Source: an uncultured Acidobacteriota bacterium (GTDB lineage Bacteria > Acidobacteriota > Vicinamibacteria > Fen-336). From it: a DNA stretch of 64,000 nt. Shown piece by piece: positions 25,413 through 49,004 of the stretch. Positions within the stretch are counted from its first letter, which is position 1. Every line of letters starts with the position of its first letter. The notes below the pieces were generated by a model. That model was not told the origin of the DNA, ran no database searches, and saw only the letters and a list, made by a program, of their open reading frames with translations. The stretch is taken from contig CADEEV010000002.1 of NCBI GenBank assembly GCA_902826455.1, positions 188,488-252,487 of the forward strand, in the 5' to 3' direction. Both the position numbers and the translations under genes were made by a program.

Positions 25413-26387
25413 ATGCGACCGCGGATCCACCTGCTGAACCCGATGTGGGACGAGAGCGGCGGCAGCGAGCATCGTGTCGCCGCCCTCGCAGGTGCGCTGT
25501 CGCCGGACGCCGACGTCACGATCTGGTCGGACCACGAGCCCGCTCCCGGCTGGCGCGCGCGCCTGCCGATCCGGAAGATCGCGCCGCGGCGTCTCGCGTT
25601 CCCCATCCGCGGCACGCTCGTGGTGGTGGGCGTGTACTTTCGGGTCGGAGACTGGCTGCGCTGGAGCCGGCCGAGCCGCACCATCCTCGTCTGCAACACC
25701 TTTTCGCCCCGGGGCCTCGCGCGTCAGCGGCAACGTGTGTCCTGGGGAGGGTCACGGCCGCTGGAGCTCGTGTTCGCGTCCGAGACGTTGCGACGCAAGC
25801 TCGACCTCCCGGGCATCGTGCAACCGTCCGTCGTGGATCTCGAGGAGTTCTCCCCCCGGCTCGAGAGCCGGACCACGTTCACGGTGGGACGCCTGAGCCG
25901 CGACGTCGCCGAGAAGCACCACGAGCGGGATCCGGGCCTGTACCGCCGCCTCGCCGCCCGCGGCTGCCAGGTGCGCGTCATGGGCGGGACGGTGCTCGAG
26001 CCCGCGCTGCGCGAGGCGGGAGGGCTCGAGGGGATCGCGCTGCTGCCGGCACAGGCTCAGCCGGCCAGCGCGTTCCTGGCGGGCCTCGACTGCTTCTTCT
26101 ACAGGACGTCGCGGTCCTTCTTCGAAGCCTCCGGCCGCGTGGTCACCGAGGCCATGGCGATGGGCCTGCCGGTCGTGGCCGACCGTGTCGGAGGCTACGC
26201 GGACGTGATCGAGCCGGGCGTGAACGGCTTCCTGTTCGACGACGACGACGAGGCCGTGGCGCAGATCGAGCGTCTGAGGCTCGATCCCGAGCTGCGCCGG
26301 CGCATCGGGCGCGCCGCCCGGGAAAGCGTGGAGCGGGAGCTGTCGCCCGGCGCTCGCCGGGAGATCGTCGAGTTCTACACCCGCTAG
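25413..26387 (+). CDS. Glycosyltransferase family 4 (GT-B fold).
   Basis: 'EASGRVVTEAMAMGLPVVADRVGG' GT4 signature. Confidence 0.85.
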   Translation: MRPRIHLLNPMWDESGGSEHRVAALAGALSPDADVTIWSDHEPAPGWRARLPIRKIAPRRLAFPIRGTLVVVGVYFRVGDWLRWSRPSRTILVCNTFSPRGLARQRQRVSWGGSRPLELVFASETLRRKLDLPGIVQPSVVDLEEFSPRLESRTTFTVGRLSRDVAEKHHERDPGLYRRLAARGCQVRVMGGTVLEPALREAGGLEGIALLPAQAQPASAFLAGLDCFFYRTSRSFFEASGRVVTEAMAMGLPVVADRVGGYADVIEPGVNGFLFDDDDEAVAQIERLRLDPELRRRIGRAARESVERELSPGARREIVEFYTR

Positions 26388-27700
26388 GGCCGGGTGCTCG
26401 AGGCCTGCATCCACTCGCGCAGGCGCGTCATGTCCGCCGGCGCCGTGCGCGAGGCGGCGAGCAACACGGCCATGACGAGGAGCGCCAGGACGGGAACCAC
26501 GTGCATCGCGAGGCGCAGGCCCTCGGAGATCGCGAAGGCCGGGTCGCCGCCGGCCGCGGCCGCGACGCGCGCGTAGTGGTCGCTGGCGGCGCCCGTGAGG
26601 ACCGGGCCCAGCGCCCCGCCGAGCATGTACATCGCGAAGAAGTACAAGGCCATGGCCGTGCCCCGCAGCGCCGGCTCGATGACGTCGTGCAGGGCGGAGT
26701 AGACCACCGAGTAGTACACCTGCATCGCCGCGTAGCCGAGCCCGGCCACGACGGCGAACGCCGCGACGTGGCCGCGGCCCTGCTGCAGTGCGACCCACAT
26801 CAACGGGGCCGCGAGGGCGACGCCCGCGGCTCCGACGAGAAGGCGGCCGTCGGGCCGCCGCCGAGCGAGCGCATCGCCGGCATGGCCACCGGCCAGCAGC
26901 CCGAGGATGCCTGCGAGCGACACGCCCATGCCGACGAAGCCGGCGCTGCGGATCCCGAGGCCGTGGTAGCGCATCAGGTACGGGGCCAGGAAGCTGCTGA
27001 AGGCGTACATGCTGAAGTTGTGGAGCGCGCCCGAGGCGATGATCCACACCACCGTCGGGGTCGCGAGGACCAGCCGGTAGGGCGACCCCTCGCGCTGACG
27101 CGCGCCGATCGCGAACGCCTCGCTCGCGCCCCGGCCGGGCTCCTGGATCCGCAGCACGGCCAGGGCACAGAGCAGGCCGGGGATCGCCGCCAGGAAGAAG
27201 GCCCAGCGCCAGCCGAAGGCGTGGGCGACGGCGCCGCCCACGGCGAAGCTCGAGGCCAGGCCCAGGGGGAGCCCGAGCATGAAGATGGACATGGCGCGGG
27301 CCCGGCGCTCCGCGGGGAACAGGTCGCCGATCAGCGACGAGGCGGCCGGCGCGCAGCTCGCCTCGCCGACGCCGACGCCGAGGCGGCACGCGAGAAGCGA
27401 CGCGTAGCTCCAGGCGGCGCCCGTGGCCGCCGTGAGCAGGCTCCAGCCGAACACGCCCGCCGCCAGCATCTTCGGACGGGCGACCCGGTCCGCGAGGCGG
27501 CCGAGGGGAATCCCCGCCACCGCGTACAAGAGGATGAAGACCGTGCTGGCTCCGCCGAGGGCCGTGTCGGAGAGGTTCCACTCGCGCCGGATCGGCTCGC
27601 TCACGACGCCGAGGATCTGGCGGTCGAAGAAGTTGAGGAAGTTGATCGCGAACAGGACGCCCAGGGCATAGGCGCCGCCGCGCGGCCGGGAACCGGTCAC
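26384..27700 (-). CDS. MFS transporter.
   Basis: GTG at 27700 overlaps the upstream stop (GTGA). Motif A-like 'GRLADRVARPK'. 12-TM hydrophobic profile. Confidence 0.85.
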   Translation of the reverse strand: MTGSRPRGGAYALGVLFAINFLNFFDRQILGVVSEPIRREWNLSDTALGGASTVFILLYAVAGIPLGRLADRVARPKMLAAGVFGWSLLTAATGAAWSYASLLACRLGVGVGEASCAPAASSLIGDLFPAERRARAMSIFMLGLPLGLASSFAVGGAVAHAFGWRWAFFLAAIPGLLCALAVLRIQEPGRGASEAFAIGARQREGSPYRLVLATPTVVWIIASGALHNFSMYAFSSFLAPYLMRYHGLGIRSAGFVGMGVSLAGILGLLAGGHAGDALARRRPDGRLLVGAAGVALAAPLMWVALQQGRGHVAAFAVVAGLGYAAMQVYYSVVYSALHDVIEPALRGTAMALYFFAMYMLGGALGPVLTGAASDHYARVAAAAGGDPAFAISEGLRLAMHVVPVLALLVMAVLLAASRTAPADMTRLREWMQASSTRP

Positions 27701-28710
27701 GAGGTCGGCCTGGAGTCTTCCGCGCGGTGCGCGATCACCTCGACGATGCGCGCCTGCAGGTCGCCCATCACGGCATCGGTCCACAGGCCGGCGTAGGCAT
27801 TGAAGCGCGTCGTCAGCCGATGCCTCGACAGCAGCACGAGCCGCGTGCGGCCGCCCTCGACGGGCTCGAGGCGGAACTCGCCCCAGGTGACCTCGAAGTG
27901 CTCGCCCCCGACACGCACGTGCTCGTCGAGGGTGCCCGGGGCGATCGACTCGGGCACCACCTGGATGTGGAAGCCCAGGCGGCGGTTCGTCTCCCAGACC
28001 CCGACCGGCTCCCTGAACGTGATGCCCTCGCGGAAGCTCGCGATGCGCAGGGCGCCCGGGCCCTCGCGGTCGAGGACGGCCTTCAGCGGCAGCGGAATGC
28101 CGATCGCGGTGAAGAAACCGCCCCGGATCTCGTCCGGGTCGATCTCGGGGACGCGGATCACCTCGCGCCAGACCGCCTCGGGCGCCGCGTCCACGACGCG
28201 CTCGGTGACGACCTCGCGCGACACGCTCGGAGCCGGCGCTCGCAGCTCGACGGGGGAGCTCAGGAACGGCAGCAGCGCGAGGGCGGCGAGCGGCGGCACG
28301 CGCGCGTCGCGGCGGCGCAGCACGAGGCCGGCCACGACGCCGCCCGCCACGGACAGCCCCACGAAGATGGGGGCGGCCATCACGATGCAGATGGCGCCCT
28401 CGAGCAGCGTGACCGCCAGGCCCATCAGGAGCGTGATGCAGGCGGCGGCCGGCAGCATCACCCAGGTCCAGACCGCGCGCCGCAGGGACAGGGGCAGCGC
28501 CGCCACCGAGAAGGCGCCCAGCGCGATCGGCACCAGCACGAGGAACGACACGCTCATGACCCCGAAGATCTGCCCCTCCTGCGGGCCCTGCGGCCTCGTC
28601 GGAAAGCCGAACACGAGTCGCGCCACGAGGCCGTAGCCGGCGCCGGCCAGGATGCCGGCGAGCGGCCCGGCCAGTAGCGCGCGCGGCGATGCCGGCTCTG
28701 CCCCTTTCAT
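27697..28710 (-). CDS. Integral membrane protein with a C-terminal SRPBCC (START/polyketide-cyclase-like) domain.
   Basis: ATG (cat 28708-28710). Four N-terminal TM segments, then 'APEAVWREVIRVPEI...GFFTAIGIPLPL...' SRPBCC-like sequence. Translationally coupled to the MFS gene. Confidence 0.7.
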   Translation of the reverse strand: MKGAEPASPRALLAGPLAGILAGAGYGLVARLVFGFPTRPQGPQEGQIFGVMSVSFLVLVPIALGAFSVAALPLSLRRAVWTWVMLPAAACITLLMGLAVTLLEGAICIVMAAPIFVGLSVAGGVVAGLVLRRRDARVPPLAALALLPFLSSPVELRAPAPSVSREVVTERVVDAAPEAVWREVIRVPEIDPDEIRGGFFTAIGIPLPLKAVLDREGPGALRIASFREGITFREPVGVWETNRRLGFHIQVVPESIAPGTLDEHVRVGGEHFEVTWGEFRLEPVEGGRTRLVLLSRHRLTTRFNAYAGLWTDAVMGDLQARIVEVIAHRAEDSRPTS

Positions 28711-28734
28711 GCGCGGCCATTCTATGATGCGCCG

Positions 28735-29484
28735 ATGCGCTCCCGCGGTCTCCTGCTCCTTCTCGCGGCCTGGCTCGCCGCACCCTCCGCCCACGCCGGC
28801 GATCCCGCGGTCGATCTCGAGCTCGCGATCGGCCGCGGCGACGTAGCCGCCGTCAAGGCCTTCCTCGCCGGCGGCCGCAGCGCCGACACGCCGATCGCCG
28901 AGGGCCACCAGACGCCGCTGCAGCGCGCCGCGTCCACCGGCAAGACCGCGATCGCGAAGCTGCTGCTCGAGCGCGGGGCCAGCGTCAACGCGCCGTCGGC
29001 CTCGGGCAGCGCCCTGCACCTCGCGATCGGCGGCGGCTGGGACGACATCGTCCAGCTCCTGATCGACAACGGCGCCGATCCCGACCAGCGCGACCCCTTC
29101 GACAACACGCCGCTCGTGAGGGCGGTGAGCGCCCAGAACCGCGAGGCCGCGCAGATCCTGATCAAGGCGGGGGCCGACCTCGGCGCCAGCACCTACGGCC
29201 TCACGCCGCTCATGTTCGCGTCGAGCACCGGCGACCCGGAGTCGATCCGCTTCCTGGTGAAGGCCGGCGCCAAGGTGAACGGCGTCGGCAAGGGCCAGTA
29301 CGGCGGCCGCAGCGCGCTGCTCGCCGCGATCCCCGACGGCCACGCGGACTGCGTCAAGGTCCTGATCGAGCTCAAGGCCGACGTGAACCAGAAGGGCCCC
29401 GACGGCAAGACGCCCCTGGCGACGGCGCGCGAGGCGAAACAGGAGGAGATCGTGACGATTCTCAAGGCCGCGGGGGCCCGGTGA
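28735..29484 (+). CDS. Secreted ankyrin-repeat protein.
   Basis: Signal peptide 'MRSRGLLLLLAAWLAAPSAHA'. ANK repeats ('TPLQRAASTGKTAIAKLLLERGASVNA...'). Confidence 0.85.
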   Translation: MRSRGLLLLLAAWLAAPSAHAGDPAVDLELAIGRGDVAAVKAFLAGGRSADTPIAEGHQTPLQRAASTGKTAIAKLLLERGASVNAPSASGSALHLAIGGGWDDIVQLLIDNGADPDQRDPFDNTPLVRAVSAQNREAAQILIKAGADLGASTYGLTPLMFASSTGDPESIRFLVKAGAKVNGVGKGQYGGRSALLAAIPDGHADCVKVLIELKADVNQKGPDGKTPLATAREAKQEEIVTILKAAGAR

Positions 29485-31025
29485 CGGGCCGCCCGCTCGT
29501 CCTCTTCCTGGCGGCAGCGCTGGCCCTGCCGGCGCATGCCGCCGATCCCAAGCTGGTTGCGAAGCTGCTGAAGCAGCTCGCCGACAGGAAGGACGACAAG
29601 CGCATCGACGCGTCCTACACCCTCGTCGACCTGCGGATCGTCGAAGCGGTGCCGGCGCTGATCGTGGCGCTGCGCGATCCCGTGAAGGAGGTGCGCTACA
29701 ACGCCGCGGGCGCGCTGTGGAACCTGGGCGAGGCCGCGCGTCCCGCCGTGCCCGACCTGATCCGTCGCCTCGACGATCCCGATCCCGGCGTGCGCGTGCA
29801 GGCGGCCGGCGCCCTGAAGGGCTTGAACGCCGCGACGGCCCAGGTCATGGCGGCGCTCAAGAAGGTGCTGGTCGACGGCGACGAGGACGATCGCAAGCGC
29901 GCCAAGGACATGCTGAAGGGCGGGGGCGCGGGCGGCATCCAGTTCGCGGCCCAGGAGGGCCAGGCCGACGTCGTGGCGGGGCTGCTCGACGGCGGCGTCG
30001 ACGTGGACGCGCTCGACGACAACAAGCGGACGGCGCTGCACTGGGCCGCGTCCCAGGGCCGCGAGGACGTCGTGAAGCTGCTGCTCGAGCGCGGCGCCGA
30101 CGTCTCGCTCGCCGACAAGGACCAGAACCAGCCACTGCACCTGGCCGCGTTCAAGGGCTCGCTGCCCGTGGCCCAGCTGCTGCTCGACAAGAAGGCCGAC
30201 GTGAACGCCGTCGAGGAGCGCCGCATCACTCCGCTGCACCTCGCGGCGCGCACGGGCAACAAGCCCCTCGTGGACCTGCTGCTGGCGCGCGGCGCCAACC
30301 CCAAGGCCAAGGACCAGCAGGGCTCGAGCCCGATGCACTGGGCGGCCTCGGGCGGCCAGACCGACGTGGTGCTCGCGTTCCTCGCGAAGGGCCTCGACGT
30401 GAACCTTCCGGACTCCCACGGCCAGGGCCCGCTCTACGACGCCGCGGCCGGCGGCCACACCGAGCTCGTGAAGCTGCTGCTCGACCGCAAGGCCGCCGTG
30501 AAGGGCACGGGCCTCATGGCGACGATGACGGGCACGCCGCTCCACGGCGCGGCCCGCGGCGGTCATCTCGCCACCATGGAGCTGCTGATCGCGCGGGGCG
30601 TGCCGCTCAACGCGGCGCAGTTCGACAAGACGGCGCTCCACGCCGCCGCCGCCGAGGGCCGGATCGAGGCCATGAAGCTGCTGCTCGCGAAGGGCATGAA
30701 GGTCGACGCCGTGGCGCCCCAGACGAGCGGCGGCACGCCGTTGTTCAGCGCCGTCTTCGAGGGCCAGCTCCCGGCGGTGCAGTTCCTGGTCGAGCAGGGC
30801 GCGAACGTGAACGCGAAGGAGGCCTCGAGCGGCCGCACGGTCCTGCACAGCGCCATGAACCGCGGCGGCCTCGACGACAAGCGCCAGGCCATCGTGAAGC
30901 TGCTCCTCGACCGCAAGGCCGATCCCAACGCGAAGGACGCGGCGGGAGCGACGCCCCTCGCGGTAGCGCTCGAGAACCAGAACAAGGAAGGTGCCGCCCT
31001 GCTGCGGCAGTACGGGGCGCAATAG
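29481..31025 (+). CDS. Secreted HEAT-repeat plus ankyrin-repeat protein.
   Basis: ATG overlaps the upstream stop (ATGA). Signal peptide 'LVLFLAAALALPAHA'. HEAT repeats ('DPVKEVRYNAAGALWNLG', 'DPDPGVRVQAAGAL'), then about 9 ANK repeats. Confidence 0.85.
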   Translation: MTGRPLVLFLAAALALPAHAADPKLVAKLLKQLADRKDDKRIDASYTLVDLRIVEAVPALIVALRDPVKEVRYNAAGALWNLGEAARPAVPDLIRRLDDPDPGVRVQAAGALKGLNAATAQVMAALKKVLVDGDEDDRKRAKDMLKGGGAGGIQFAAQEGQADVVAGLLDGGVDVDALDDNKRTALHWAASQGREDVVKLLLERGADVSLADKDQNQPLHLAAFKGSLPVAQLLLDKKADVNAVEERRITPLHLAARTGNKPLVDLLLARGANPKAKDQQGSSPMHWAASGGQTDVVLAFLAKGLDVNLPDSHGQGPLYDAAAGGHTELVKLLLDRKAAVKGTGLMATMTGTPLHGAARGGHLATMELLIARGVPLNAAQFDKTALHAAAAEGRIEAMKLLLAKGMKVDAVAPQTSGGTPLFSAVFEGQLPAVQFLVEQGANVNAKEASSGRTVLHSAMNRGGLDDKRQAIVKLLLDRKADPNAKDAAGATPLAVALENQNKEGAALLRQYGAQ

Positions 31026-31027
31026 AG

Positions 31028-33175
31028 ATGAGGCGCGCCGTCGCACTGCTGTTGGCGGGCCTGGTGGCGCCCGCGAGCCACGGGCAGCAGGTCGTGCCGG
31101 GCACGGCCGCCGAGGTGGTGCAGCTCGACGTGGTGGTGACCGACTCGAACGGCCGCCCCGTGCGCGACCTGACCCTCGCCGACTTCCTCGTGCAGGAGGA
31201 CGGCAAGCCGCAGAAGCTGTCGCTGTTCGTGCCGTCGGGCTCGAACGCCCCCGAGCCGACCGAGGAAGAGCTCGTCGCGGCGGAGGCGGCCGAGGCGGCC
31301 GGCGAGGCGCCGAAGTCGCCCGGCCGCAGCATCGCGGTCGTGGTCGACGACCTGCACATCGCCCCGGAGAGCATCGAGCTGGCGCGGCGCGCGCTGCGCC
31401 GGCTGCCCCGCGAGCTGATGCGCGACGACGACTCGGTGGCCCTGGTCACGACCGCCCATGGCGTCATCCAGCAGTTCACGAAGGACACGGCGACCCTGGG
31501 CCAGGCCATCGAGCGCCTGATCGCCCAGGCCCCGGCCTTCCCGCCCGCGGCCCACTCCCAGATGACCGCGGTGCAGGCGGAGCTGATCCTGCGGGGCGAC
31601 CGCAACGCCCGCAAGCTCGCCGCCAAGAGCCTCATCGCCGAGCCGGGCAGCATCTTCGACACGGCCGGCCCGCGCGCCGCGATCGCGGCCGCGAACGGCG
31701 GCGGCAACACGAGCGCCGCCGGCGGCGACGCCGGCAAGGAGGCCGCGGCCGAGGACGAGGTGCAGCGCCAGGCCCGCGGCGTGCTGGCCGAGGCCCTGCG
31801 CTACTCCGTCGCGTCGCTGTCGGGCGTCGAGGACGTGCTGCGCGGCCTCGGCGCGCGGCCGGGCCGCAAGCTGTGCCTGCTGGTCTCGGACGGCTTCCTG
31901 GTGGGCCGCGGCACGTCCGACGAGCGCACCCGCGACCTGCAGCGGGTCACCGACGCCGCGACGCGCGCGGGCGCCGTCGTCTACACCCTCGACACGCGCG
32001 GCCTGATCTCCGGCGGCGCCGACGCGAGCATCGCGGGCAACAGCGTGCAGCCCGAGTTCAAGGCCGGCATCGACGCCCAGTCGTCCGCGATCTACCGCAC
32101 GACCCTGCGCGACATCGCCCTCGACACCGGCGGCCTGTTCGTGTCGGGCACGAACGAGATGGCGGCCGGGATCGCGCGCATGCTGGCGGACAACGCGGCC
32201 TACTACCTCATGGCCTACGAGCCGACCAACACGAAGCGCGACGGGCGCTTCCGCAGGATCAAGGTGCGGGTGCCGGCCCACGCCAACTACGACGTGCGCA
32301 CGCGCGCCGGCTACTTCGCCCGCGACGCGAAGAAGCCCGGGCCGCCGCCGCAGCGCGCCGTGCTCGACGGCGGGCTCGATCTCGACGAGGCCCGCGAGGC
32401 CCTGGCCCAGCCGCTGCCGGGCGGCGGCATCCCGGTGTCGGTCGACGCCGCGTTCCTCGACCTGCCCGCCACCGGGCCGCAGGCCCTCGTGCGAGCCCAC
32501 GTCGAGCTGGCCGGTCTCGTGTGGGACAAGGCCGAGGGCCGCAACCACGCCACCGTCGAGCTGCTCGGCAGCGCCTACGGGCCGAGCGGACAGGCCGTGG
32601 GCGCGCCCTTCGGACAGCGCGCCGAGCTCAACTTCTCCGACGCCGAGCTCAAGCGCGCGGTCGCCGCGGGCCTCGAGTTCCAGCAGTCCCTGAGCCTGCC
32701 GCCGGGCCGCTACGACGTGCGCGTGCTGGCCCGCGAGAAGCGCATCGGCCAGGTGGGCGGCGGCAGCGCGCCGATCGAGATGCCCGACCTCGCGGACGGC
32801 GCGCTCGCCGCGAGCGGCGTGTTCCTGGCCTCGGCCAAGGCCGGCGCCGATCCCCAGACCCAGGCGCGCGGCGTGCGCCGCGTCAAGAAGGGCGAGAACC
32901 TGTTCTTCCAGGTCTACGTGTACAACGCGGAGGGCGCCGGCACCCGCGCCGCGGACGTCGTGCTGCAGGCGCAGGTGTGGTCGAACGGCAAGCCGATCGC
33001 GGCCTCGAAGGTGCAGCCCGCCAAGCTCGCGACCGACGGTGTCACGCCGATCCCCGAGACCAACGAGGTCGGCCTCTCCGGGCTCGCCCCCGGTCCCTAC
33101 GAGCTGCGCGTGGTGGTGGTCGATCGCAAGGCGGAGGCGACCGTGAAACGCTCCGCCGCGTTCGAGATCGAATGA
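31028..33175 (+). CDS. Secreted VWA-domain protein (VWFA-related acidobacterial family), copy 1.
   Basis: ATG at 31028, 2 nt after the upstream stop. Signal peptide. N-terminal 'VVQLDVVVTDSNGRPV...FLVQEDGKPQKLSLF' beta-sandwich, then a VWA domain. Confidence 0.85.
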   Translation: MRRAVALLLAGLVAPASHGQQVVPGTAAEVVQLDVVVTDSNGRPVRDLTLADFLVQEDGKPQKLSLFVPSGSNAPEPTEEELVAAEAAEAAGEAPKSPGRSIAVVVDDLHIAPESIELARRALRRLPRELMRDDDSVALVTTAHGVIQQFTKDTATLGQAIERLIAQAPAFPPAAHSQMTAVQAELILRGDRNARKLAAKSLIAEPGSIFDTAGPRAAIAAANGGGNTSAAGGDAGKEAAAEDEVQRQARGVLAEALRYSVASLSGVEDVLRGLGARPGRKLCLLVSDGFLVGRGTSDERTRDLQRVTDAATRAGAVVYTLDTRGLISGGADASIAGNSVQPEFKAGIDAQSSAIYRTTLRDIALDTGGLFVSGTNEMAAGIARMLADNAAYYLMAYEPTNTKRDGRFRRIKVRVPAHANYDVRTRAGYFARDAKKPGPPPQRAVLDGGLDLDEAREALAQPLPGGGIPVSVDAAFLDLPATGPQALVRAHVELAGLVWDKAEGRNHATVELLGSAYGPSGQAVGAPFGQRAELNFSDAELKRAVAAGLEFQQSLSLPPGRYDVRVLAREKRIGQVGGGSAPIEMPDLADGALAASGVFLASAKAGADPQTQARGVRRVKKGENLFFQVYVYNAEGAGTRAADVVLQAQVWSNGKPIAASKVQPAKLATDGVTPIPETNEVGLSGLAPGPYELRVVVVDRKAEATVKRSAAFEIE

Positions 33176-33183
33176 GGGTGACG

Positions 33184-35304
33184 ATGAAGAAGGCATTCGC
33201 CATCGGCCTTGCGCTCCTGCTGACGCCCAGGGCCGGGGCCCAGCAGGCCGTCACCGGATCCGCCGCCGAGATCGTGCAGCTCGACGTGGTGGTGACCGAC
33301 GGCGACGGGAAGCCGGTCCGCACCCTGACCCAGGCCGACTTCGAGGTTCAGGAGGACGGCAAGCCGCAGCGCCTGTCGTTGTTCGTGCCTTCCGGGGCCT
33401 CGGGCACGCTGGCCGTGGCCGACACGCCAGGCGCCGCGGGCGCCCCTCCGGGCCCCGCGGCGGCCGGCCGCAACATCGCGGTGGTCGTGGACGACATCCA
33501 CATCGCTCCGGAGAACCTGGTGCAGGCCCGCACGGCGCTGAAGCGGCTGCCCCGCGAGATGATGCTCGAGGGCGACAGCGTCGCGCTGGTGTCCTCGACG
33601 CGCGGTGTCATCGAGCCGTTCACGAAGGACCGCGAGCGCCTCGAGCACGCGATCGACACGCTCCTGGCGCTGGCGCCGCCGGCGCCCCAGGGCCGCGGCA
33701 CGCAGATGACGCCGGCCCAGGCCGAGCTGATCCTGCGCGGCGACCGCAACGCCCGCAAGCTCGCGGCGCGCACGCTGCGCCTCGAGCCCGGGAGCGTCAG
33801 CGATTCGAACGGGCCGCGCGCGGCGCTCACCAGCAACTACGGCCAGTCCGGGGCGCCGACCGAGGAGGGCGTCGATGCGGCGGCGGAAGACGAGGCCCAG
33901 CGCCAGGCCCGCGGCATTCTCGCGGAGACGCTGCACTTCTCGGTCGCTTCCCTGGCGGCCGTCGAGGACGTCAGCCGCGCGATGTCGGCGTGGCCCGGCC
34001 GCAAGGTGATGCTGCTGCTCTCGGACGGCTTCCTGGTGGGCCGCGGCACGAGCGAGGAGCGCACGCGCGAGGTGCAGCGCGTCGTCGACGCGGCGACGCG
34101 CGGCGGCGCCGTCGTGTACACCATGGACACCAAGGGCCTGATCACCGGCGGCCCGGACGCGAGCGCCGCGGGAACCGCCGTGGGCCAGGACTTCAAGGCG
34201 AACGTCGACCAGCAGTCGATGCAGCTCCTGCGCGGCACGCTCGCCGACATCGCGGCCCAGACCGGCGGCTTTCTCGTCGCCGGCACGAACGACCTCGCGG
34301 GCGGCCTCGCGCGCATGCTGGACGACAACGCGTCCTACTACCTCATGGCCTACGAGCCGCTGAACGCGAAGCGCGACGGCAAGTTCCGCCGCATCAAGGT
34401 GCGCCTGCCGGCCCACGCGAGCTACCAGGTGCGCACGCGCGCCGGCTACTACGCGCGCGACGCCAAGGTGGCGGCGCCGCCGCCGCCGCGCGCCGTGCTC
34501 ACGCCGGGCCTCGACCTCGGCACCGTGGTCGCGGCCCTCGCGGCGCCGCTGCCGCAAGGCGGCATCCCGGTGCGGCTCGGGGCCGACTTCCTGTCCTTGC
34601 CGGCCACGGGCTCGCAGGCCCTGGTCCAGGCCCACGTCGACATCGCGGCGCTCCAGTGGCAGAAGACGGCGGGGCGCAACCAGGCCACCCTCGAGCTGCT
34701 CGGCAGCGCGTTCGATGCCGGCGGCAACGCGGCCGGCGCGCCGTTCGGCCAGCGCGCCGAGCTCAACTTCTCCGACGAAGAGCTGAAGCGCGCGAGGGCC
34801 ACCGGCGTCGAGTTCCAGCAGGCGCTCGGCCTGCCGCCCGGCCGCTACGAGGTGCGGCTGCTCGCGCGCGAGACGCGGCTGGGACAGGCGGGCTCGAGCC
34901 ACGTCGCGCTCGAGGTGCCGGATCTCGCGAACGGCGCCCTCGCCACGAGCGGCGTGTTCCTGGCCGCGGCCCCCGCCGCGGCGTCGCAATCGGCGAAGTC
35001 GCAGCGCCGCTTCAAGAAGGACACGAGCCTGTTCTTCCAGGTCTACGTGTACAACGCGCGGGGTGCTTCCGAAGGCGCCGCGGACGTGGTGCTGCAGGCG
35101 CAGATCTGGTCGGGCGGCAAGGCCATCGCGGCCTCGAAGCCGCAGCCCGCGACGCTCGGCAAGGACGGGGAGACGCCGCTGCCCGAGACCAACGAGGTGG
35201 GCCTCGCCGGGCTCGAGCCGGGTCCCTACGAGCTGCGCGTGGTGGTGGTCGACCGCAAGGCCAACGTCAACGCGCTGCGCACGGCCGAGTTCGCGATCGA
35301 GTGA
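33184..35304 (+). CDS. Secreted VWA-domain protein (VWFA-related acidobacterial family), copy 2. Tandem paralog of copy 1.
   Basis: ATG at 33184. Collinear with copy 1 throughout ('IVQLDVVVTDGDGKPV...FEVQEDGKPQRLSLF' ... 'GPYELRVVVVDRKA'). Confidence 0.85.
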   Translation: MKKAFAIGLALLLTPRAGAQQAVTGSAAEIVQLDVVVTDGDGKPVRTLTQADFEVQEDGKPQRLSLFVPSGASGTLAVADTPGAAGAPPGPAAAGRNIAVVVDDIHIAPENLVQARTALKRLPREMMLEGDSVALVSSTRGVIEPFTKDRERLEHAIDTLLALAPPAPQGRGTQMTPAQAELILRGDRNARKLAARTLRLEPGSVSDSNGPRAALTSNYGQSGAPTEEGVDAAAEDEAQRQARGILAETLHFSVASLAAVEDVSRAMSAWPGRKVMLLLSDGFLVGRGTSEERTREVQRVVDAATRGGAVVYTMDTKGLITGGPDASAAGTAVGQDFKANVDQQSMQLLRGTLADIAAQTGGFLVAGTNDLAGGLARMLDDNASYYLMAYEPLNAKRDGKFRRIKVRLPAHASYQVRTRAGYYARDAKVAAPPPPRAVLTPGLDLGTVVAALAAPLPQGGIPVRLGADFLSLPATGSQALVQAHVDIAALQWQKTAGRNQATLELLGSAFDAGGNAAGAPFGQRAELNFSDEELKRARATGVEFQQALGLPPGRYEVRLLARETRLGQAGSSHVALEVPDLANGALATSGVFLAAAPAAASQSAKSQRRFKKDTSLFFQVYVYNARGASEGAADVVLQAQIWSGGKAIAASKPQPATLGKDGETPLPETNEVGLAGLEPGPYELRVVVVDRKANVNALRTAEFAIE

Positions 35305-36263
35305 AGCCGCTCCGCTTCGCCCTGGGCTGCGCCGCGCTGCTGCTGATGTGGGGTGGCCTCGCGGCCCTGGCGCTCCGCGTCATGACGCCGGTGACGCCCG
35401 CGGCCCCGCGGCCCTGGCTGGCTCTCGTGGCCGGCGGCCTCGTGGCGCTGGGCCTGCAGAGCCTGTGGTACCTGGCGTTCGGCGGGGTCGGGCGCGGCTC
35501 CGGCTCGCGGCAGGAGATCCTGAGGCGCGCCGCGGCGGGCGAGGCGCCGCCCGACGGCGGCTTCATCGTGGCGACGGGCACCGTGCGTGCGCTCGGCGCG
35601 CCGCTCGTAGCACCGCTCTCGGGCCGCGAGTGCGCCGCCTACATGTACCGGATGTTCTACCGCGGCCGCGAGGCCGGCAAGAAGCGCGCGCTCGCCGAGG
35701 TGCCGGTGTTCTGGGGCCACTCGTTCCGGCCCTTCGCGATCGACCATCCCGCCGCGCGCTTCCGTGTGATGGCGGTGCCGCTGCTCGGCAACCAGGCCGA
35801 GCGCCGCGAGGGCGACGCCGTCGTGGCTCAGGCCCGGCAGTGGGTCGCCTCTACTGCGTTCGAGGATGTTTCGCCCAACGTCGTCGGTTCGCTCGGCGCG
35901 GCCCTCGCCCACGTGAAGACGCTGTTCAGCGACGAGGACGGCGAGGACCGCCGCGACTACCGGCGCGCCGGCGAGGAGGGCCGCGATCCCGGGACGCTGA
36001 TCCTCGAGGAGACCCTCCTGCCCGTCGGCGAGGTGGCTTCGGTCTCGGGCCGCTGGTCCGCGGCGAAGAGCGCCATCGTGGCGGGCGGCGGCGACGCCGT
36101 GGCGGAGACCGTGTCGGCCGTGCTGGGACCGCCCGAGCGCCTGAAGGGGCCGGGCGAAGTGCCGCCCTCGTTCGCGTCCTACCTGACGAGCGCGATCGTG
36201 CTCACGGCCCTGGGCGCCGGCCTCGTCTGGTTCTCGATCGCGATCCTGCCCGGGATGAAATGA
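35301..36263 (+). CDS. Hypothetical membrane protein.
   Basis: GTG at 35301 overlaps the upstream TGA. Two N-terminal TM segments and one C-terminal TM segment. Confidence 0.6.
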   Translation: MKPLRFALGCAALLLMWGGLAALALRVMTPVTPAAPRPWLALVAGGLVALGLQSLWYLAFGGVGRGSGSRQEILRRAAAGEAPPDGGFIVATGTVRALGAPLVAPLSGRECAAYMYRMFYRGREAGKKRALAEVPVFWGHSFRPFAIDHPAARFRVMAVPLLGNQAERREGDAVVAQARQWVASTAFEDVSPNVVGSLGAALAHVKTLFSDEDGEDRRDYRRAGEEGRDPGTLILEETLLPVGEVASVSGRWSAAKSAIVAGGGDAVAETVSAVLGPPERLKGPGEVPPSFASYLTSAIVLTALGAGLVWFSIAILPGMK

Positions 36264-37711
36264 AGGGCGGCCTCGTCCTCGTCACGGGCGCCACCGGCTA
36301 CATCGGGGGCCGCCTCGTGCCCCGACTGCTCGAGGCCGGCTACCGCGTGCGCTGCCTGGCGCGGGCCCGCGGCAAGCTCGCGGCACACGTGTGGGCCGCG
36401 GATCCGCGCGTCGAGATCGTCGAGGGCGACGTCGGGGAGCCCGAGGCGCTCCAGATAGCGCTCGCCGGCTGCACGGCCGCCTACTACCTCGTGCACTCCA
36501 TGGTCGCGACGGGCGCCGCGTACGCGGCCCAGGACCGCGCGCTCGCGGAGGCCTTCGCGGGCGCGGCCGGCCGTGCGGGGCTCGAGCGCCTCGTCTACCT
36601 GGGCGGGCTGGGCGAGCTCGGCGACGGTCTCTCGGAGCACCTCGAGTCGCGGCGCGAGGTAGAGCGCAGGCTCCAGTCGGGCCCGATCCCGGTGACCGTG
36701 TTGCGCGCGGCCATGATCATCGGCTCCGGGTCCGCCTCCTTCGAGATCCTGCGCTACCTCGTCGAGCGCCTGCCGGTGATGATCACCCCCAAGTGGGTCG
36801 CGACCGAGTGCCAGCCGATCGCCGTGCGCAACGTCCTGCGCTACCTGGTCGCGTGCCTCGACGTGCCCGAGACGCGCGGCCGCACCCTCGACATCGGCGG
36901 GCCCGACGTGCTCTCGTACCGCGCGATCATGGACGTCATGGCCGAGGAGCGCGGGCTTCCGCGGCGCATCGTGATCCCCGTGCCCGTGCTGACGCCGCGC
37001 CTCAGCTCGCTCTGGATCCATCTCGTCACCCCGCTCTCGCGACGCATCGCGCGCCCGCTCGCCGAGGGGCTGCGCAACCGCGTGGTGTGCCGCAACGACG
37101 ACGCGCAGCGCCTCATGCCCGGCTCGCTGCTGACCGTGCGCGAGGCGATCCGCGCGGCGCTCCAGCGCCTGAAGGCCGGTGACGTCGAGACGGCGTGGTC
37201 CACCGCCGGGCCGATCCCGGGCGACCCCGACTGGGCCGGCGGCACCGTGTTCACGGACAGCCGCTCCGTCGCGATTGCGGCGAGCCCGGCCCGGGTCTTC
37301 GCCGCGGTGCGGCGCATCGGCGGCGGCCACGGCTGGTACGCGGCCGACCGGCTGTGGCGCCTGCGCGGCCTTCTCGATCGCCTGGTGGGCGGCCCCGGCC
37401 TGCGCCGCGGCCGGCGCGATCCCGACAGCGTCGGCTACGGCGAGGCCCTCGACTTCTGGCGCGTGACCGGCCTCGTGCCCGACCGGCGTCTCGCCCTGCG
37501 CGCCGAGATGAAGCTGCCGGGCGAGGCCCTGCTGGAGTTCACGGTCGAGCCCGAGGGTGCGAACGCGCGGCTGGTGCAGACCGCGCGGTTCCTGCCCCGC
37601 GGCCTGCTCGGCCTCGCCTACTGGTACGCCGTGCTGCCCTTCCACGGCATCGTCTTCGCCGGCATGCTCCAGGGCATCCGGCGCGAGGCGGAGACGCCCG
37701 CGCCCGCCTGA
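36260..37711 (+). CDS. NAD(P)-binding SDR/NmrA-like domain fused to a DUF2867-like domain.
   Basis: ATG overlaps the upstream stop (ATGA). Rossmann motif 'LVTGATGYIGGRLV'. The C-terminal ~160 aa is SRPBCC-like ('VFTDSRSVAIAASPARVFAAVRRIGGGHGWY'). Confidence 0.8.
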   Translation: MKGGLVLVTGATGYIGGRLVPRLLEAGYRVRCLARARGKLAAHVWAADPRVEIVEGDVGEPEALQIALAGCTAAYYLVHSMVATGAAYAAQDRALAEAFAGAAGRAGLERLVYLGGLGELGDGLSEHLESRREVERRLQSGPIPVTVLRAAMIIGSGSASFEILRYLVERLPVMITPKWVATECQPIAVRNVLRYLVACLDVPETRGRTLDIGGPDVLSYRAIMDVMAEERGLPRRIVIPVPVLTPRLSSLWIHLVTPLSRRIARPLAEGLRNRVVCRNDDAQRLMPGSLLTVREAIRAALQRLKAGDVETAWSTAGPIPGDPDWAGGTVFTDSRSVAIAASPARVFAAVRRIGGGHGWYAADRLWRLRGLLDRLVGGPGLRRGRRDPDSVGYGEALDFWRVTGLVPDRRLALRAEMKLPGEALLEFTVEPEGANARLVQTARFLPRGLLGLAYWYAVLPFHGIVFAGMLQGIRREAETPAPA

Positions 37712-37714
37712 GCC

Positions 37715-38527
37715 ATGCCCGAGCTCCCCGAGGTCGAGGTCACGCGCCGGCAGCTCGCCCCCATGCTCGTGGGGCGCAAGGTCGCGCGCGTCTTCACGAC
37801 CCGGCCGAGCTACTTCTTCCTGACGCCGCCGGCGACGCTGCGGCGGCGCCTCACGGGCCGCGTCGTCGAGCGCCTGGAGCGCCTCGGCAAGTACCTGCTC
37901 GCCGACCTCGACAGCGGCGAGCGCCTCTTGCTCCACCTCGGCATGACGGGGGAGATCGTGCGCGAGGGCGCCGTCGACCACGACCGCCACGTGCACCTGC
38001 GCCTCGAGTTCGACGACGGCCGGCCCGGCGTCGTGTTCCGCGACGAGCGCAAGTTCGGGAAGGTGCAGCTCCTCGCCGCCGGCGAGGACTCGAAGCGCGT
38101 GCTGCGCCTGGGCCCCGACGCGCTCTCGGCCGACGCGGAGCACCTCCACGCGGCCACGCGCGGGCGGCGCATCCCGATCAAGACGCTGCTGCTGGACCAG
38201 GCGGTGCTGGCCGGCGTCGGCAACATCTACGCGGACGAGGCGCTGTTCCTGGCGCGGGTGCGTCCCACGCGGCGCGCCGCCGGCCTGACGCGGGCCGAGA
38301 CCCCGGCGATCGCCGCCGCGGTGCGCCAGGTGCTGCGGCGCGCGATCGAGGCCGGCGGCTCCAGCATCAGCGACTTCGTCCAGCCCGAGGGTGGAGAAGG
38401 CGGCTATCAGCACGAGCGCCACGTCTACGCGCGCGAGGGCGAGCCCTGCGGCCGCTGCGGCACGGCGATCCGCCGCACGGTGCTCGGCCAGCGCTCGTCC
38501 CACTACTGCCCGAGCTGCCAGCGCTGA
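37715..38527 (+). CDS. mutM: Formamidopyrimidine-DNA glycosylase.
   Basis: Canonical N-terminus 'MPELPEVEVTRR'. 'KFGKVQL' and a C-terminal zinc finger 'CGRCGTAIRRTVLGQRSSHYCPSCQ'. Confidence 0.95.
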   Translation: MPELPEVEVTRRQLAPMLVGRKVARVFTTRPSYFFLTPPATLRRRLTGRVVERLERLGKYLLADLDSGERLLLHLGMTGEIVREGAVDHDRHVHLRLEFDDGRPGVVFRDERKFGKVQLLAAGEDSKRVLRLGPDALSADAEHLHAATRGRRIPIKTLLLDQAVLAGVGNIYADEALFLARVRPTRRAAGLTRAETPAIAAAVRQVLRRAIEAGGSSISDFVQPEGGEGGYQHERHVYAREGEPCGRCGTAIRRTVLGQRSSHYCPSCQR

Positions 38528-38528
38528 G

Positions 38529-38825
38529 ATGGCCGAGGACGACGACCCTCCCTTCGAGCTGCCAATTGGGGACGAGCTCGACCTGCACGCCTTCGCGCCC
38601 CGCGACGTGACCTCCGTGGTGGAGGATTACCTGAGGGCCTGCCGCGAGCGGGGCATCCTGCGGGTGCGGCTCGTCCACGGACGCGGTCGCGGGGTGCAGC
38701 GCTCGGCCGTGCGGGCGCTGTGTGCCCGGCTCCCGTTCGTGGTCGGCCTCGACGAGGCGCCGCCCGAGCTCGGCGGCTGGGGTGCGACGTTCGTGACGCT
38801 GGCAGCGCCCACCGACATCGGCTAA
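38529..38825 (+). CDS. Small Smr-domain protein (98 aa).
   Basis: Starts 1 nt after the mutM stop. Smr-like 'ELDLHAF...ILRVRLVHGRGRG'. Confidence 0.7.
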   Translation: MAEDDDPPFELPIGDELDLHAFAPRDVTSVVEDYLRACRERGILRVRLVHGRGRGVQRSAVRALCARLPFVVGLDEAPPELGGWGATFVTLAAPTDIG

Positions 38826-38870
38826 CGTCGCCCCACCGCAAGCACTCACGTACAACCTGCTGGAGGTGCG

Positions 38871-40352
38871 ATGCTCGCCCTGTCCCTCTCCCTGGCCCTG
38901 CTCGGTGCCGCCGCTCCCGCCGCCGAGCCCCCCGAGCTCGCCGGCTTCGCCGAGTACGCCGCGAAGGCAATGGCCGACTGGCACGCGCCGGGCCTGGCCG
39001 TCGCGGTCGTGAAGGACGGCGCCGTGGTGTTCGAGCGCGGCTTCGGCGTGCGCACGCTGGGCAAGCCCGAGCCCGTCGACACGGCCACGCGCTTCGCCGC
39101 CGCGTCGACGACGAAGGCCATGACCGCGACGGCGCTGCTGCTGCTCGCGAAGGACGGCAAGCTCTCCCTCGACGAGCCGGCTATCCGCTACGTGCCGGAG
39201 CTGCGCTTCAAGGACCCCTACGTGACCCGCGAGGTCCGCGTGCGTGACCTGCTCACCCACAGCGCCGGGATGCCCAGCACCGATTGGCTCTGGTACGAGC
39301 AGGAGGAATCGACGCCCGAGATCCTCAAGCACCTGCAGTGGGTGGAGCCGGCGAGCTCCATGCGCACCCACTTCCTCTACCAGAACGTGATGTACGGCGC
39401 CGCGGGCGAGGTGGTGGCCCGCGCCTCGGGCATGCCCTGGGCGGACTTCGTACGGACGCGCCTGTTCGCTCCGCTCGGGATGAAGGACACGCTCCCGCTC
39501 GCGAGCCTCGTGGCGGGCCAGCCCGACGTGGCCTCGCCCCACGCCGAGCGCGCGGGCCGCGTCGAGGTGATCCGGAACGCGAGCGTCGACGGCGTCGCGC
39601 CGGCCGGCTCCGTGTGGTCGAGCATCCACGACATGGCGCGCTGGGTGACGTACCTGCTCGACCCGAAGAACGCCGAGACGCTCGGGCCGTTGTTCGAGCC
39701 CCAGGTGATCATCGACCCCGACGAGTTCTATCCGACCGCGCGCCTCACGCAGCCCCACTGGACGACCTACGGCCTCGGCTGGTTCCAGCAGGACTACGCC
39801 GGCCAGAAGCTCGACTTCCACACCGGCAGCATCGACGGCATGGTGGCGATCGTGGGCCTCGTGCGCGACAAGAACCTCGGCATCGTCGTGCTCTCGAACC
39901 TGGACGGCTCGCAGCTCCGCCATGCCTTGATGCTGTCGGTCTTCGATCGCTACCTCGGCCGGCCCCCGCGCGACTGGAGCGCCGACCTGCGCGCGCTCTA
40001 CGGCGGACGCAAGAAGGAGCAGGACGAGGCCGAGGCGAAGCTCGTGGCGGCGCGCCACGAAGGCACGCGGCCGTCCCTGACCCTCGAGCGCTACGTCGGT
40101 CGCTACGCCGACCCGCGCGCGACGCCGGTGGAGGTGGCGATGACGGACGGGGCGCTGCGGCTGCGCTTCGGACGCGGCGGCGCCCGTCTCGAGCACTGGC
40201 ACTACGAGACGTTCCGCGCCGTCTGGGACGCGACCTGGCGGGATCCGGAGTTCGTTACGTTCCGGCTCGACGCCGCCGGCGCGGTGAAGGAGCTCGAGAT
40301 GGGCCCGCTCGCGTTCCAGCGCGAGGCTCCGGCCGCCGCGGCGAGCCGCTAG
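38871..40352 (+). CDS. Beta-lactamase-fold serine hydrolase (class C / PBP-like) with a C-terminal extension.
   Basis: Signal peptide. 'ASTTK' (SxxK), 'YQN', 'HTG' motifs. Confidence 0.85.
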   Translation: MLALSLSLALLGAAAPAAEPPELAGFAEYAAKAMADWHAPGLAVAVVKDGAVVFERGFGVRTLGKPEPVDTATRFAAASTTKAMTATALLLLAKDGKLSLDEPAIRYVPELRFKDPYVTREVRVRDLLTHSAGMPSTDWLWYEQEESTPEILKHLQWVEPASSMRTHFLYQNVMYGAAGEVVARASGMPWADFVRTRLFAPLGMKDTLPLASLVAGQPDVASPHAERAGRVEVIRNASVDGVAPAGSVWSSIHDMARWVTYLLDPKNAETLGPLFEPQVIIDPDEFYPTARLTQPHWTTYGLGWFQQDYAGQKLDFHTGSIDGMVAIVGLVRDKNLGIVVLSNLDGSQLRHALMLSVFDRYLGRPPRDWSADLRALYGGRKKEQDEAEAKLVAARHEGTRPSLTLERYVGRYADPRATPVEVAMTDGALRLRFGRGGARLEHWHYETFRAVWDATWRDPEFVTFRLDAAGAVKELEMGPLAFQREAPAAAASR

Positions 40353-48795: not shown

Positions 48796-49004
48796 CGATA
48801 CCCTATCACGGGGGCTCTTATTAAATACGTCTTCGAAAGTTTCGCGGCCGCCGCGACGCGCCTCTACTCGTTGGCCTGGATGCATTTCGCCTTGCTGGGC
48901 GCGGTCGTTCGTATACCTTATTCATTGACGAGCCTGCGCGTGGGACGCTAGTCTCACTGGACTTCCCTTACAGAATTGACCGAAGTCCTGAGGAGATCCC
49001 CGAG

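Follow-up and report, generated by a model that had tools for sequence, protein, structure and literature searches.

A tandem pair of ankyrin-repeat genes with predicted export signals is conserved independently of the adjacent VWA genes

Two ankyrin (ANK)-repeat genes, ank1 and ank2, form a tandem pair that is the conserved unit of the locus studied here; the adjacency of the pair to VWA genes, seen in the 64,000-nucleotide stretch of DNA that we analyzed (the window), is not conserved. Export of both products is supported by signal-peptide features that are conserved in all complete orthologues. ANK and HEAT+ANK solenoids behind N-termini of the Sec/signal peptidase I type make a role as exported protein-binding modules reasonable, and we lean toward the reading that ank1 and ank2 are a self-contained, translationally coupled exported module, a periplasmic protein-binding pair whose client is encoded elsewhere. 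Free-living bacteria seldom have exported ANK proteins, and a role is known for few of these. Ank1 is now defined as a small family of ∼250 residues, nearly always paired with a second, putatively exported ANK protein whose N-terminal domain varies between lineages, and together they offer a concrete two-protein system, open to testing, in soil bacteria that have received little study. The practical importance of the pair is modest, and current understanding is left unchallenged.

Results and Discussion

Genes and protein architecture

The initial annotation described two consecutive ANK/HEAT-repeat ORFs, and both are present on the plus strand and confirmed by Pfam (Table 1). Ankyrin-repeat proteins (Pfam PF00023/PF12796) are built of 33-residue helix-turn-helix units in tandem. 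The Pfam family Ank_2 (cut-off 27.3 bits) matches the Ank1 protein at 133.9 bits (E = 3e-39) and the Ank2 protein at 266.3 bits (E = 1.4e-80), so both carry ANK repeats above the gathering threshold. We counted the repeats of Ank1 and Ank2 with a self-trained repeat HMM. For Ank2, this HMM and the AlphaFold2 model (mean pLDDT 88.2), in which ∼4 HEAT-like hairpins are followed by 11 ANK helix pairs, agree on the number of ANK repeats, and the estimate of about nine made from the sequence at the outset was an undercount. The three to four HEAT repeats proposed for the same protein correspond to the ∼4 hairpins. The model has ∼8 helices across residues 23–147, and hairpins of this region score above the gathering thresholds of HEAT_2 (PF13646; 49.3 bits, cut-off 27.7, residues 57–141) and HEAT (36.5 bits, cut-off 23.5, residues 51–141), with further matches to HEAT_EZ and Arm. 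Structure comparisons gave no functional lead: a PDB profile search with the Ank1 family returned generic ANK/DARPin solenoid structures only, and the top Foldseek matches of the Ank2 model were ankyrin and DARPin solenoids.

Table 1. Coordinates of the ank1–ank2 pair, its predicted protein regions and the two downstream context genes (positions in the window).
Feature	Coordinates	Strand	Basis
ank1, predicted exported ANK-repeat protein, 249 aa	28735..29484	+	ORF and Pfam Ank_2
Ank1 signal-peptide-like region, residues 1–21, MRSRGLLLLLAAWLAAPSAHA, predicted cleavage AHA/GD	28735..28797	+	heuristic n/h/c analysis
Ank1 ANK solenoid, 7 repeats, residues 28–249	28816..29481	+	repeat HMM and Pfam
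GTGA overlap, 4 bp, ank2 start codon over ank1 TGA stop	29481..29484	+	sequence
ank2, predicted exported HEAT+ANK protein, 514 aa, GTG start	29481..31025	+	ORF, Pfam, AlphaFold2
Ank2 signal-peptide-like region, residues 1–20, MTGRPLVLFLAAALALPAHA, predicted cleavage AHA/AD	29481..29540	+	heuristic analysis
Ank2 HEAT-like region, ∼4 helical hairpins, residues 23–147	29547..29921	+	Pfam and AlphaFold2 helices
Ank2 ANK solenoid, 11 repeats, residues 149–514	29925..31022	+	repeat HMM, AlphaFold2
vwa1, predicted exported TIGR03436 VWA-like protein, context gene	31028..33175	+	TIGR03436, 213.3 bits
vwa2, tandem paralogue of vwa1 (64% identity), context gene	33184..35304	+	TIGR03436, 217.1 bits

In the window the pair is surrounded by MFS, VWA, SDR and fpg genes. 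From ank1 to fpg, seven genes either overlap or lie no more than 8 bp apart, so that co-transcription of the ANK and VWA genes is almost certain in the source genome. A scan of positions 27500–39500 returned neither promoter-like nor plus-strand terminator-like sites, a result that is uninformative for this high-GC genome. The regional GC content around ank1 and ank2 (0.735–0.738) equals that of the flanking regions; there is thus no sign of recent acquisition, and recent horizontal transfer was rejected on this basis.

Conservation of the ank1–ank2 pair

The overlap of the ank2 start codon with the ank1 stop codon suggests translational coupling of the two genes, and the identical 4-bp arrangement is found in loci L020, L022 and L096 and on the P0127 contig. 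Besides the identical entry of the source contig, Ank1 has ∼29 orthologues at 39–85% identity; the relatives sampled are few, and most of their contigs are short and metagenomic. In 15 of the 16 evaluable Ank1 loci, ank1 is followed within 0–570 bp by another ANK gene whose start is signal-peptide-like. Among nearer relatives this partner is of the HEAT+ANK type, an Ank2 orthologue scoring 689–929 bits (L020, L022, L025, L096). Among more distant relatives (L023/L024, L028, L030–L033, L035, L036, L040) it is a different protein of ∼330–365 aa, in which a beta-rich N-domain, without significant match in Pfam and PDB searches, precedes the ANK repeats. Since ank1 stands alone, with no second ANK gene, in L097 and solo Ank2-like genes occur in L001–L003, the two proteins are not strictly interdependent.

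When all loci were compared with one another, the ANK genes alone were commonly shared and no other shared neighbors were found. In the window clade the pair is flanked by MFS and VWA genes, in L025 by upp and a Ser/Thr kinase gene and in L096 by DinB, and at distant loci the flanks include Mo-oxidoreductase, LMF1, BlaR1-M56 and DUF6159. Searches with Ank2 itself were dominated by its repeats. With the full-length protein, for which 8000 word-sharing candidates were scored, generic ANK proteins filled the list; at least 5 orthologue-like proteins were obtained, all without VWA neighbors, and the closest orthologues (those of L020, L022, L025 and L096) were absent from the matches and were found later. 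An exhaustive search of representatives with the HEAT region was dominated by long multi-HEAT proteins, so that family size cannot be read from it.

Proposed role and comparison with known exported ANK proteins

We propose that translational coupling joins ank1 and ank2 into a two-gene module. It occurs in a small group of soil-metagenome bacteria, and across their genomes its second gene is the only neighbor that it keeps. Both products would be exported via Sec and probably cleaved by signal peptidase I. Mature Ank1 (7 ANK repeats) and mature Ank2 (∼4 HEAT-like hairpins and 11 ANK repeats) are predicted to fold into alpha-solenoids and may bind other proteins in the periplasm, or after further secretion, so as to hold, mask or position a client of the envelope whose gene lies elsewhere in the genome. 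Such a role would be akin to that of the few characterized exported bacterial ANK proteins. We infer that Ank1 and Ank2 reside in the periplasm, cooperate and act by binding.

Pseudomonas aeruginosa has a periplasmic ankyrin-like protein, AnkB, encoded in a katB-ankB operon. AnkB would resemble our pair in its export and in the co-transcription of its gene with that of an exported protein that it reportedly supports; in contrast, no catalase gene is present at the ank1/ank2 locus, and the co-transcribed VWA neighbor is not conserved with the ANK pair.

Bd3460 of Bdellovibrio bacteriovorus is an exported six-repeat ANK self-protection protein that acts in the periplasm by binding another exported protein, and its gene adjoins that of its target, the DD-endopeptidase Bd3459 (PMC4686830). 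Ank1 has the same general build, a small ANK-only protein behind a predicted signal peptide. Unlike the target of Bd3460, an enzyme gene of such a kind is not a conserved neighbor of ank1 and ank2, and no specific sequence relation between Bd3460 and Ank1 was seen beyond the repeat consensus, the matches being to generic ANK structures only. A second case is Tli, an ANK-repeat protein that confers immunity to Tle, the T6SS lipase of Enterobacter cloacae; Tli is a lipoprotein that is encoded directly after tle and must reach the periplasm to function (bioRxiv 10.1101/2023.03.28.534661). The likeness lies in an ANK-repeat protein with a periplasmic site of action, whereas Ank1 and Ank2 lack a lipobox cysteine and their genes lack an adjacent lipase gene.

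These two proteins, working against DD-endopeptidases and the Tle lipase, respectively, raise the alternative that Ank1 and Ank2 serve in immunity or self-protection by masking a toxin or lytic enzyme that acts in the periplasm, and the immunity domains listed for polymorphic toxin systems include ANK and HEAT repeats (PMC3482391). An immunity gene normally lies in linkage with the gene of its cognate effector; here, however, the neighbors in the window and at the other loci are unrelated, the flanks differ from clade to clade, and genes for toxins, peptidoglycan hydrolases or lipases are not among the conserved neighbors. Neither protein carries a lipoprotein signal. We regard an immunity function as unlikely and prefer a binding pair with a client encoded elsewhere.

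The adjacent VWA genes

The two genes directly downstream of the pair are indeed VWA genes, as first described, and both exceed the cut-off of TIGR03436 (acidobact_VWFA, NCBIfam; 81.25 bits). Their products have signal-peptide-like N-termini by the heuristic test, and AlphaFold2 and Foldseek assign to the vwa1 product a VWA-like core with two C-terminal beta-sandwiches. The vwa1 family is large (423 matches at E<1e-30) and named as Vicinamibacteria VWA; the entry P0399, 64% identical and on the same 255,934-bp contig, supports vwa2 as the tandem paralogue of vwa1. Judged from VWA relatives labelled Vicinamibacteria or Acidobacteriota, the window most likely belongs to an Acidobacteriota lineage of the Vicinamibacteria type. 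A third TIGR03436-like gene lies on the minus strand of the window at 46576–48921. We found no literature mentioning TIGR03436 or linking Acidobacteria VWA proteins to ankyrin proteins.

The initial annotation proposed that the ANK pair provides periplasmic scaffolds for the downstream VWA proteins. Such a scaffold or chaperone role, at least in the window lineage, would fit the operon-tight spacing (2 bp between ank2 and vwa1, 8 bp between vwa1 and vwa2) and the signal-peptide-like N-termini of Ank1, Ank2, VWA1 and VWA2, by which all four would share a compartment. The arrangement is also kept in L020/L021 (Ank1 80% identical) and in L022 (63%), which has a single VWA copy. These loci are the only others in which ANK–VWA adjacency was found, but they come from close relatives whose gene order matches that of the window for more than 15 kb, unrelated housekeeping genes included. 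In L022 the collinear stretch spans the MFS gene, SDR, fpg, beta-lactamase and Tricorn protease, with 70–85% amino-acid identity, and the shared gene order reflects close kinship and not functional linkage.

Beyond this clade the association is absent. At Ank1 identities of 51–52% or less the pair is located elsewhere: in L025 and L096 (51–52%) it is present and no VWA gene was found nearby, nor was one found at 10 more distant Ank1 loci, and, going by the gene list alone, the P0127 contig apparently also has the pair with no VWA gene nearby. Starting from the VWA side, none of 17 VWA-anchored loci outside the window clade (L005–L019, L098 and the P0408 contig; flanks of up to 10 kb, several contigs being shorter) has an ANK gene by sequence or gene list. 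Adjacency in non-collinear genomes is thus absent from the 12 other evaluable Ank1 loci and from all VWA-anchored loci sampled. The VWA family is far larger than the Ank1 family, and the third TIGR03436-like gene lacks an ANK-like partner, no ANK-like ORF having been found elsewhere in the 64-kb window. The co-occurrence of ANK and TIGR03436 genes, suggested as a check when the scaffold was proposed, is therefore largely missing from related genomes. The placement of the pair upstream of the VWA genes is probably a lineage-specific gene order and not a functional link, and we consider the VWA scaffold improbable, while co-transcription may leave room for a functional link specific to this lineage. 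Tight operon spacing and synteny among close relatives hinted at a link that was gone once more distant relatives were included, a caution for this kind of analysis.

In Bat/aerotolerance-type operons, VWA proteins are combined with TPR repeat proteins. The ank locus is similar in that genes for VWA proteins, exported or membrane-bound, adjoin genes for alpha-solenoid repeat proteins. It differs in its repeats, which are ANK and HEAT, not TPR, in an association that is not conserved and in the absence of MoxR AAA+ ATPase and DUF58 genes from the gene string, neither of which was matched in the nine genes scanned around the pair.

Possible effector and escort roles

Most studied bacterial ANK proteins target eukaryotic hosts, and Ank1 and Ank2 could by analogy be effectors against soil protists or fungi, carried over the inner membrane by Sec and from there released in vesicles or through a type II system. 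Of the named NCBIfam models, those of Legionella/Coxiella Dot/Icm Ank effectors (NF0430xx) score best, and they match through the repeats only. Ank1 reaches 91 bits and Ank2 134.7 bits against a cut-off of 600 for AnkY; across the equivalog models NF043019–NF043029 (cut-offs 450–1400 bits) the scores of the two proteins are 5–25 times below the cut-offs. We rejected the type IV effector reading, which the initial annotation mentioned for exported bacterial ankyrin proteins in general, on these scores. Dot/Icm Ank effectors lack Sec signal peptides and depend on the type IV system, and type IV substrates are not known to use an N-terminal Sec signal. A match to a secretion-system family was found for none of the nine genes scanned around the pair, and the base composition, equal to that of the flanks, gives no sign of recent acquisition. 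An effector role by any of these routes thus appears quite improbable, and we retain the periplasmic binding pair as the preferred reading.

A bolder proposal is that Ank1 and its partner form a dedicated heterodimer that acts in the periplasm as a holdase or escort of large exported proteins of the envelope or matrix; in the window lineage this heterodimer would have been recruited for the duplicated TIGR03436 VWA adhesin-like proteins. We give this proposal, too, little credence; if true, it would define a periplasmic chaperone system built on ANK repeats whose second subunit is exchangeable, either HEAT+ANK or beta-rich+ANK.

Signal-peptide features

The signal-peptide calls are from a heuristic test of n-, h- and c-regions combined with conservation among orthologues. 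For Sec/signal peptidase I substrates we required a positive n-region, an h-region of 7–15 residues, small residues at −3/−1 and the absence of a lipobox cysteine and of a twin-arginine motif. Both proteins have these features: a positive n-region, a hydrophobic core of 10–12 residues (mean Kyte-Doolittle 2.7–2.9) and an A-H-A cleavage motif. The SDR and Fpg proteins of the same gene string, taken as cytoplasmic controls, show none of them. Tat export was ruled out by the lack of an RR motif, and lipoprotein status by the lack of a lipobox cysteine. The layout is kept in every complete Ank1 and Ank2 orthologue, which bears out the classical signal peptides first noted on both ORFs as far as this heuristic reaches. 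Export and cleavage of both proteins are predicted from these features.

That the N-termini stay uncleaved, so that Ank1 and Ank2 remain in the cytoplasm or are held in the inner membrane by an N-terminal helix, is very improbable: ank2 does start with GTG, no Shine-Dalgarno sequence is clearly visible upstream of ank1 and the signal-peptide call is heuristic, but the cores have only 10–12 residues and are followed by a helix-breaking proline and an AXA motif, the Ank1 layout persists down to 39% identity although the segment's own sequence varies freely, and the next methionine of Ank2 lies near residue 123, within the HEAT domain. In both genes no possible start codon lies between the preceding in-frame stop and the assigned start, so that the hydrophobic segments cannot be buried by an N-terminal extension. 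Residues 1–19 of Ank2 are unstructured in the AlphaFold2 model (pLDDT <50), and behind the signal-peptide-like region its orthologues share a conserved mature N-terminus, ADxKxxAKLLKQL.

Ank1 and Ank2 are predicted exported ankyrin-repeat proteins

The seven plus-strand genes from ank1 to fpg are closely packed in the window: the GTG start of ank2 lies on the ank1 stop in a 4-bp overlap, and the remaining spacings are gaps of at most 8 bp or overlaps. GC content stays at 0.72-0.75 over this region and does not shift at the ankyrin-repeat (ANK) genes relative to their surroundings. Divergent from ank1, with 24 bp between both start codons, lies the gene for a 337-aa protein whose N-terminal half contains several hydrophobic segments; this gene is found in metagenomic locus L020 and missing from L022.

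Coordinates of features in the window and in the metagenomic contigs compared
Feature	Sequence	Coordinates	Strand	Length	Remark
MFS transporter	window	26384-27700	-		upstream
membrane protein	window	27697-28710	-	337 aa	upstream of ank1; unassigned, no family match
ank1	window	28735-29484	+	249 aa	
Ank1 C-terminus	window	29464-29484	+		no basic tail
ank2	window	29481-31025	+	514 aa	
vwa1	window	31028-33175	+	715 aa	TIGR03436
V-D-D-L-H motif	window	31346-31357	+		VWA1 residues 107-110; equivalent position in vwa2
vwa2	window	33184-35304	+	706 aa	TIGR03436
membrane protein, unnamed	window	35301-36263	+	320 aa	no Pfam or NCBIfam match
SDR+DUF2867	window	36260-37711	+	483 aa	SDR/NmrA-like fusion
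fpg	window	37715-38527	+	270 aa	mutM
third TIGR03436-like ORF	window	46576-48921	-		130 bits to VWA1
distant second gene (beta-rich + ANK)	L023	10771-11865			equivalents in L028, L030, L031, L033, L036, L040
ANK array	L043	5251-13550			
ANK array	L047	2-10879			

Pfam assigns only ANK families to Ank1 (Ank_2, E=3e-39), while Ank2 matches ANK (E=1.4e-80) and, at residues 51-141, HEAT_2, HEAT, HEAT_EZ and Arm. A repeat HMM built from Ank1 and Ank2 themselves counts 7 evenly spaced ANK repeats in the former and 11 in the latter. Four orthologues went into an AlphaFold2 model of Ank2 (mean pLDDT 88.2), in which residues 1-19 are unstructured at the N-terminus, residues 23-147 form about eight HEAT-like helices and residues 151-510 form 11 ANK helix pairs. 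Foldseek matched the model to ankyrin and DARPin solenoids. Together with the N-terminal features, these results confirm the initial annotation of two exported-type ORFs, one ANK and one HEAT plus ANK; the HEAT part of Ank2 stands, and its estimate of about nine ANK repeats gives way to the 11 found by both the HMM and the model. Type IV effector families were ruled out on score for both proteins. The closest Ank1 orthologues (P0122-P0124, P0126-P0130) end in a basic tail of about 10 aa (e.g. GAALPAKKS), which is missing from Ank1 of the window owing to the position of its stop codon at the overlap with the ank2 start.

Signal peptides were judged by heuristic scoring of classical features. 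Both Ank1 and Ank2 have a positive n-region, a 10-12-residue hydrophobic core and a proline, followed by A-H-A at the predicted cleavage site; this scoring found neither a twin-arginine motif nor a lipobox cysteine in either protein. Both annotated starts are the first start codon past an in-frame stop. The layout is retained in every complete orthologue, although the sequence of the segment itself varies. The N-termini of VWA1 and VWA2 exhibit the same features, and those of the SDR protein and Fpg do not.

The tandem ANK pair as the conserved unit

The comparison covered the contigs of the Ank1 orthologues as well as 71 loci of a metagenome scan. The Ank1 search delimited a clean family whose members are about 250 residues long, with about 29 orthologues at 39-85% identity in addition to the identical entry from the source contig (255,934 bp). 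A second ANK gene directly follows ank1 in 15/16 evaluable loci, and all second genes whose N-termini were examined have a signal-peptide-like start. Judged by gene content across these loci, it is the tandem of ANK genes that is conserved as a unit.

The next gene encodes an Ank2 orthologue, with VWA genes nearby, where Ank1 identity is 80% (L020/L021) or 63% (L022, one VWA copy). At 51-52% identity the Ank2 orthologue is kept (689-747 bits in L025 and L096; probably also on the contig of the Ank1 orthologue P0127, where a 518-aa gene appears in the gene list) and no VWA gene is nearby. L097 (51%) has ank1 alone, with no second ANK gene and no VWA gene nearby. Ten more distant loci (42-46%), again with no VWA gene nearby, carry a different second ANK gene, whose product of about 330-365 residues combines a signal-peptide-like N-terminus with a beta-rich domain (about 180 residues) and about five ANK repeats; the beta-rich domain had no match in sequence searches of Pfam or PDB.

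The flanks of the pair are functionally unrelated across loci: upp and a Ser/Thr kinase gene adjoin it in L025, DinB in L096, and NADH/formate dehydrogenase genes on the P0127 contig. In an all-against-all comparison of 12 loci, no gene other than the ANK genes was shared outside the window's own clade. The Ank2 search yielded five orthologue-like proteins without VWA neighbours, a list from which the nearest orthologues are missing. Ank2-like genes also occur without a partner (L001-L003).

The VWA neighbours

The two genes downstream of ank2 were correctly annotated as TIGR03436 (213 and 217 bits; cut-off 81). The ANK pair had been proposed to form periplasmic scaffolds for these VWA proteins, but ANK-VWA adjacency occurs only in the window, L020/L021 and L022. 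Because co-transcription in the window genome is nearly unavoidable, a functional tie to the VWA proteins specific to this lineage keeps a low probability. The window gene order is reproduced in L020/L021 and L022. In L022 the collinearity extends from the MFS gene through the SDR gene, fpg, a beta-lactamase gene and a Tricorn-like protease gene at 70-85% amino-acid identity; on this evidence it is simply a close relative, and the shared order therefore says little on function. The VWA1 family is large (423 matches at E<1e-30, several of them named Vicinamibacteria VWA proteins), and an ANK gene occurs in 0/17 VWA-anchored loci outside the window clade (L005-L019, L098 and the P0408 contig, by sequence or gene list), within flanks of up to 10 kb on contigs several of which are shorter. 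The scaffold proposal, which predicted ANK-VWA association in relatives, thus fails beyond one narrow clade, and these comparisons do not support a VWA link of the pair.

In a model of VWA1 from 30 homologues (mean pLDDT 74.3), the N-terminus forms a small beta domain, the VWA-like alpha/beta core is interrupted by a long helical insertion, and the C-terminal part consists of two beta-sandwich domains. For these sandwiches, Foldseek ranked highest the biofilm scaffold protein RbmA of Vibrio cholerae and transglutaminase C-terminal barrels, at low TM-scores (query 0.15, target about 0.36). In the alignment of the 700-750-aa family, D107 and H110 of a V-D-D-L-H motif are invariant and D108 and L109 are at least 90% conserved. 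In our reading, with the motif placed by eye on the alignment, it occupies the expected place of the canonical MIDAS D-x-S-x-S, which suggests a VWA fold without metal coordination of the usual style. These features are in keeping with an exported protein of the adhesin or matrix type, and none of them requires an ANK partner.

At 64% identity, vwa1 and vwa2 are paralogues in tandem; since only one copy occupies this position in L022, the duplication is recent in the window's lineage. The third TIGR03436-like gene of the window has no ANK neighbour. The 320-aa protein has a hydrophobic N-terminus and its gene overlaps vwa2 by 4 bp; L022 keeps this gene immediately downstream of its VWA gene (378 bits), and the other VWA loci compared lack it. 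The SDR/NmrA-like+DUF2867 gene and fpg lie in the same overlapping string, and L022 keeps their order, followed there by an Smr gene.

A possible role of the ANK pair

Domain content and the pattern of conservation are direct results. From the conserved signal peptides, the conserved, translationally coupled pairing and the precedents below, we infer that Ank1 and Ank2 would be exported by Sec and processed by signal peptidase I, and that they most likely act as cooperating protein-binding solenoids, either in the periplasm or once released further, on a client whose gene probably lies elsewhere in the genome. As a general idea, exported modules for protein binding, already put forward in the initial annotation, are reasonable. 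Bd3460, a six-repeat ANK protein with a signal peptide, masks DD-endopeptidases in the Bdellovibrio periplasm (PMC4686830), and Tli neutralises the Tle lipase only once it has arrived in the periplasm (bioRxiv 10.1101/2023.03.28.534661). Immunity domains listed for polymorphic toxin systems include ANK and HEAT repeats (PMC3482391). Bd3460 and Tli resemble the pair, as proposed here, in being exported ANK proteins that act in the periplasm, but Ank1 and Ank2 have no linked cognate enzyme gene at the locus, and membership in any of these three systems was therefore rejected. The ANK pair belongs to an uncharacterised but unsurprising kind.

Other ANK loci in the metagenome scan

The gene calls of L004 (ENA contig k141_286239, 3800 bp) are mirror-symmetric and suggest an assembly artefact of the inverted-repeat (hairpin) type; in its 755-aa protein P0004, the N-terminal half is genuine HEAT+ANK sequence, and what is fused to it translates the antisense strand. 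The metagenomic contigs L043 and L047 carry long arrays in which 12-15 ANK-containing ORFs follow one another, each of 150-264 aa and with no relationship to the Ank1 family.
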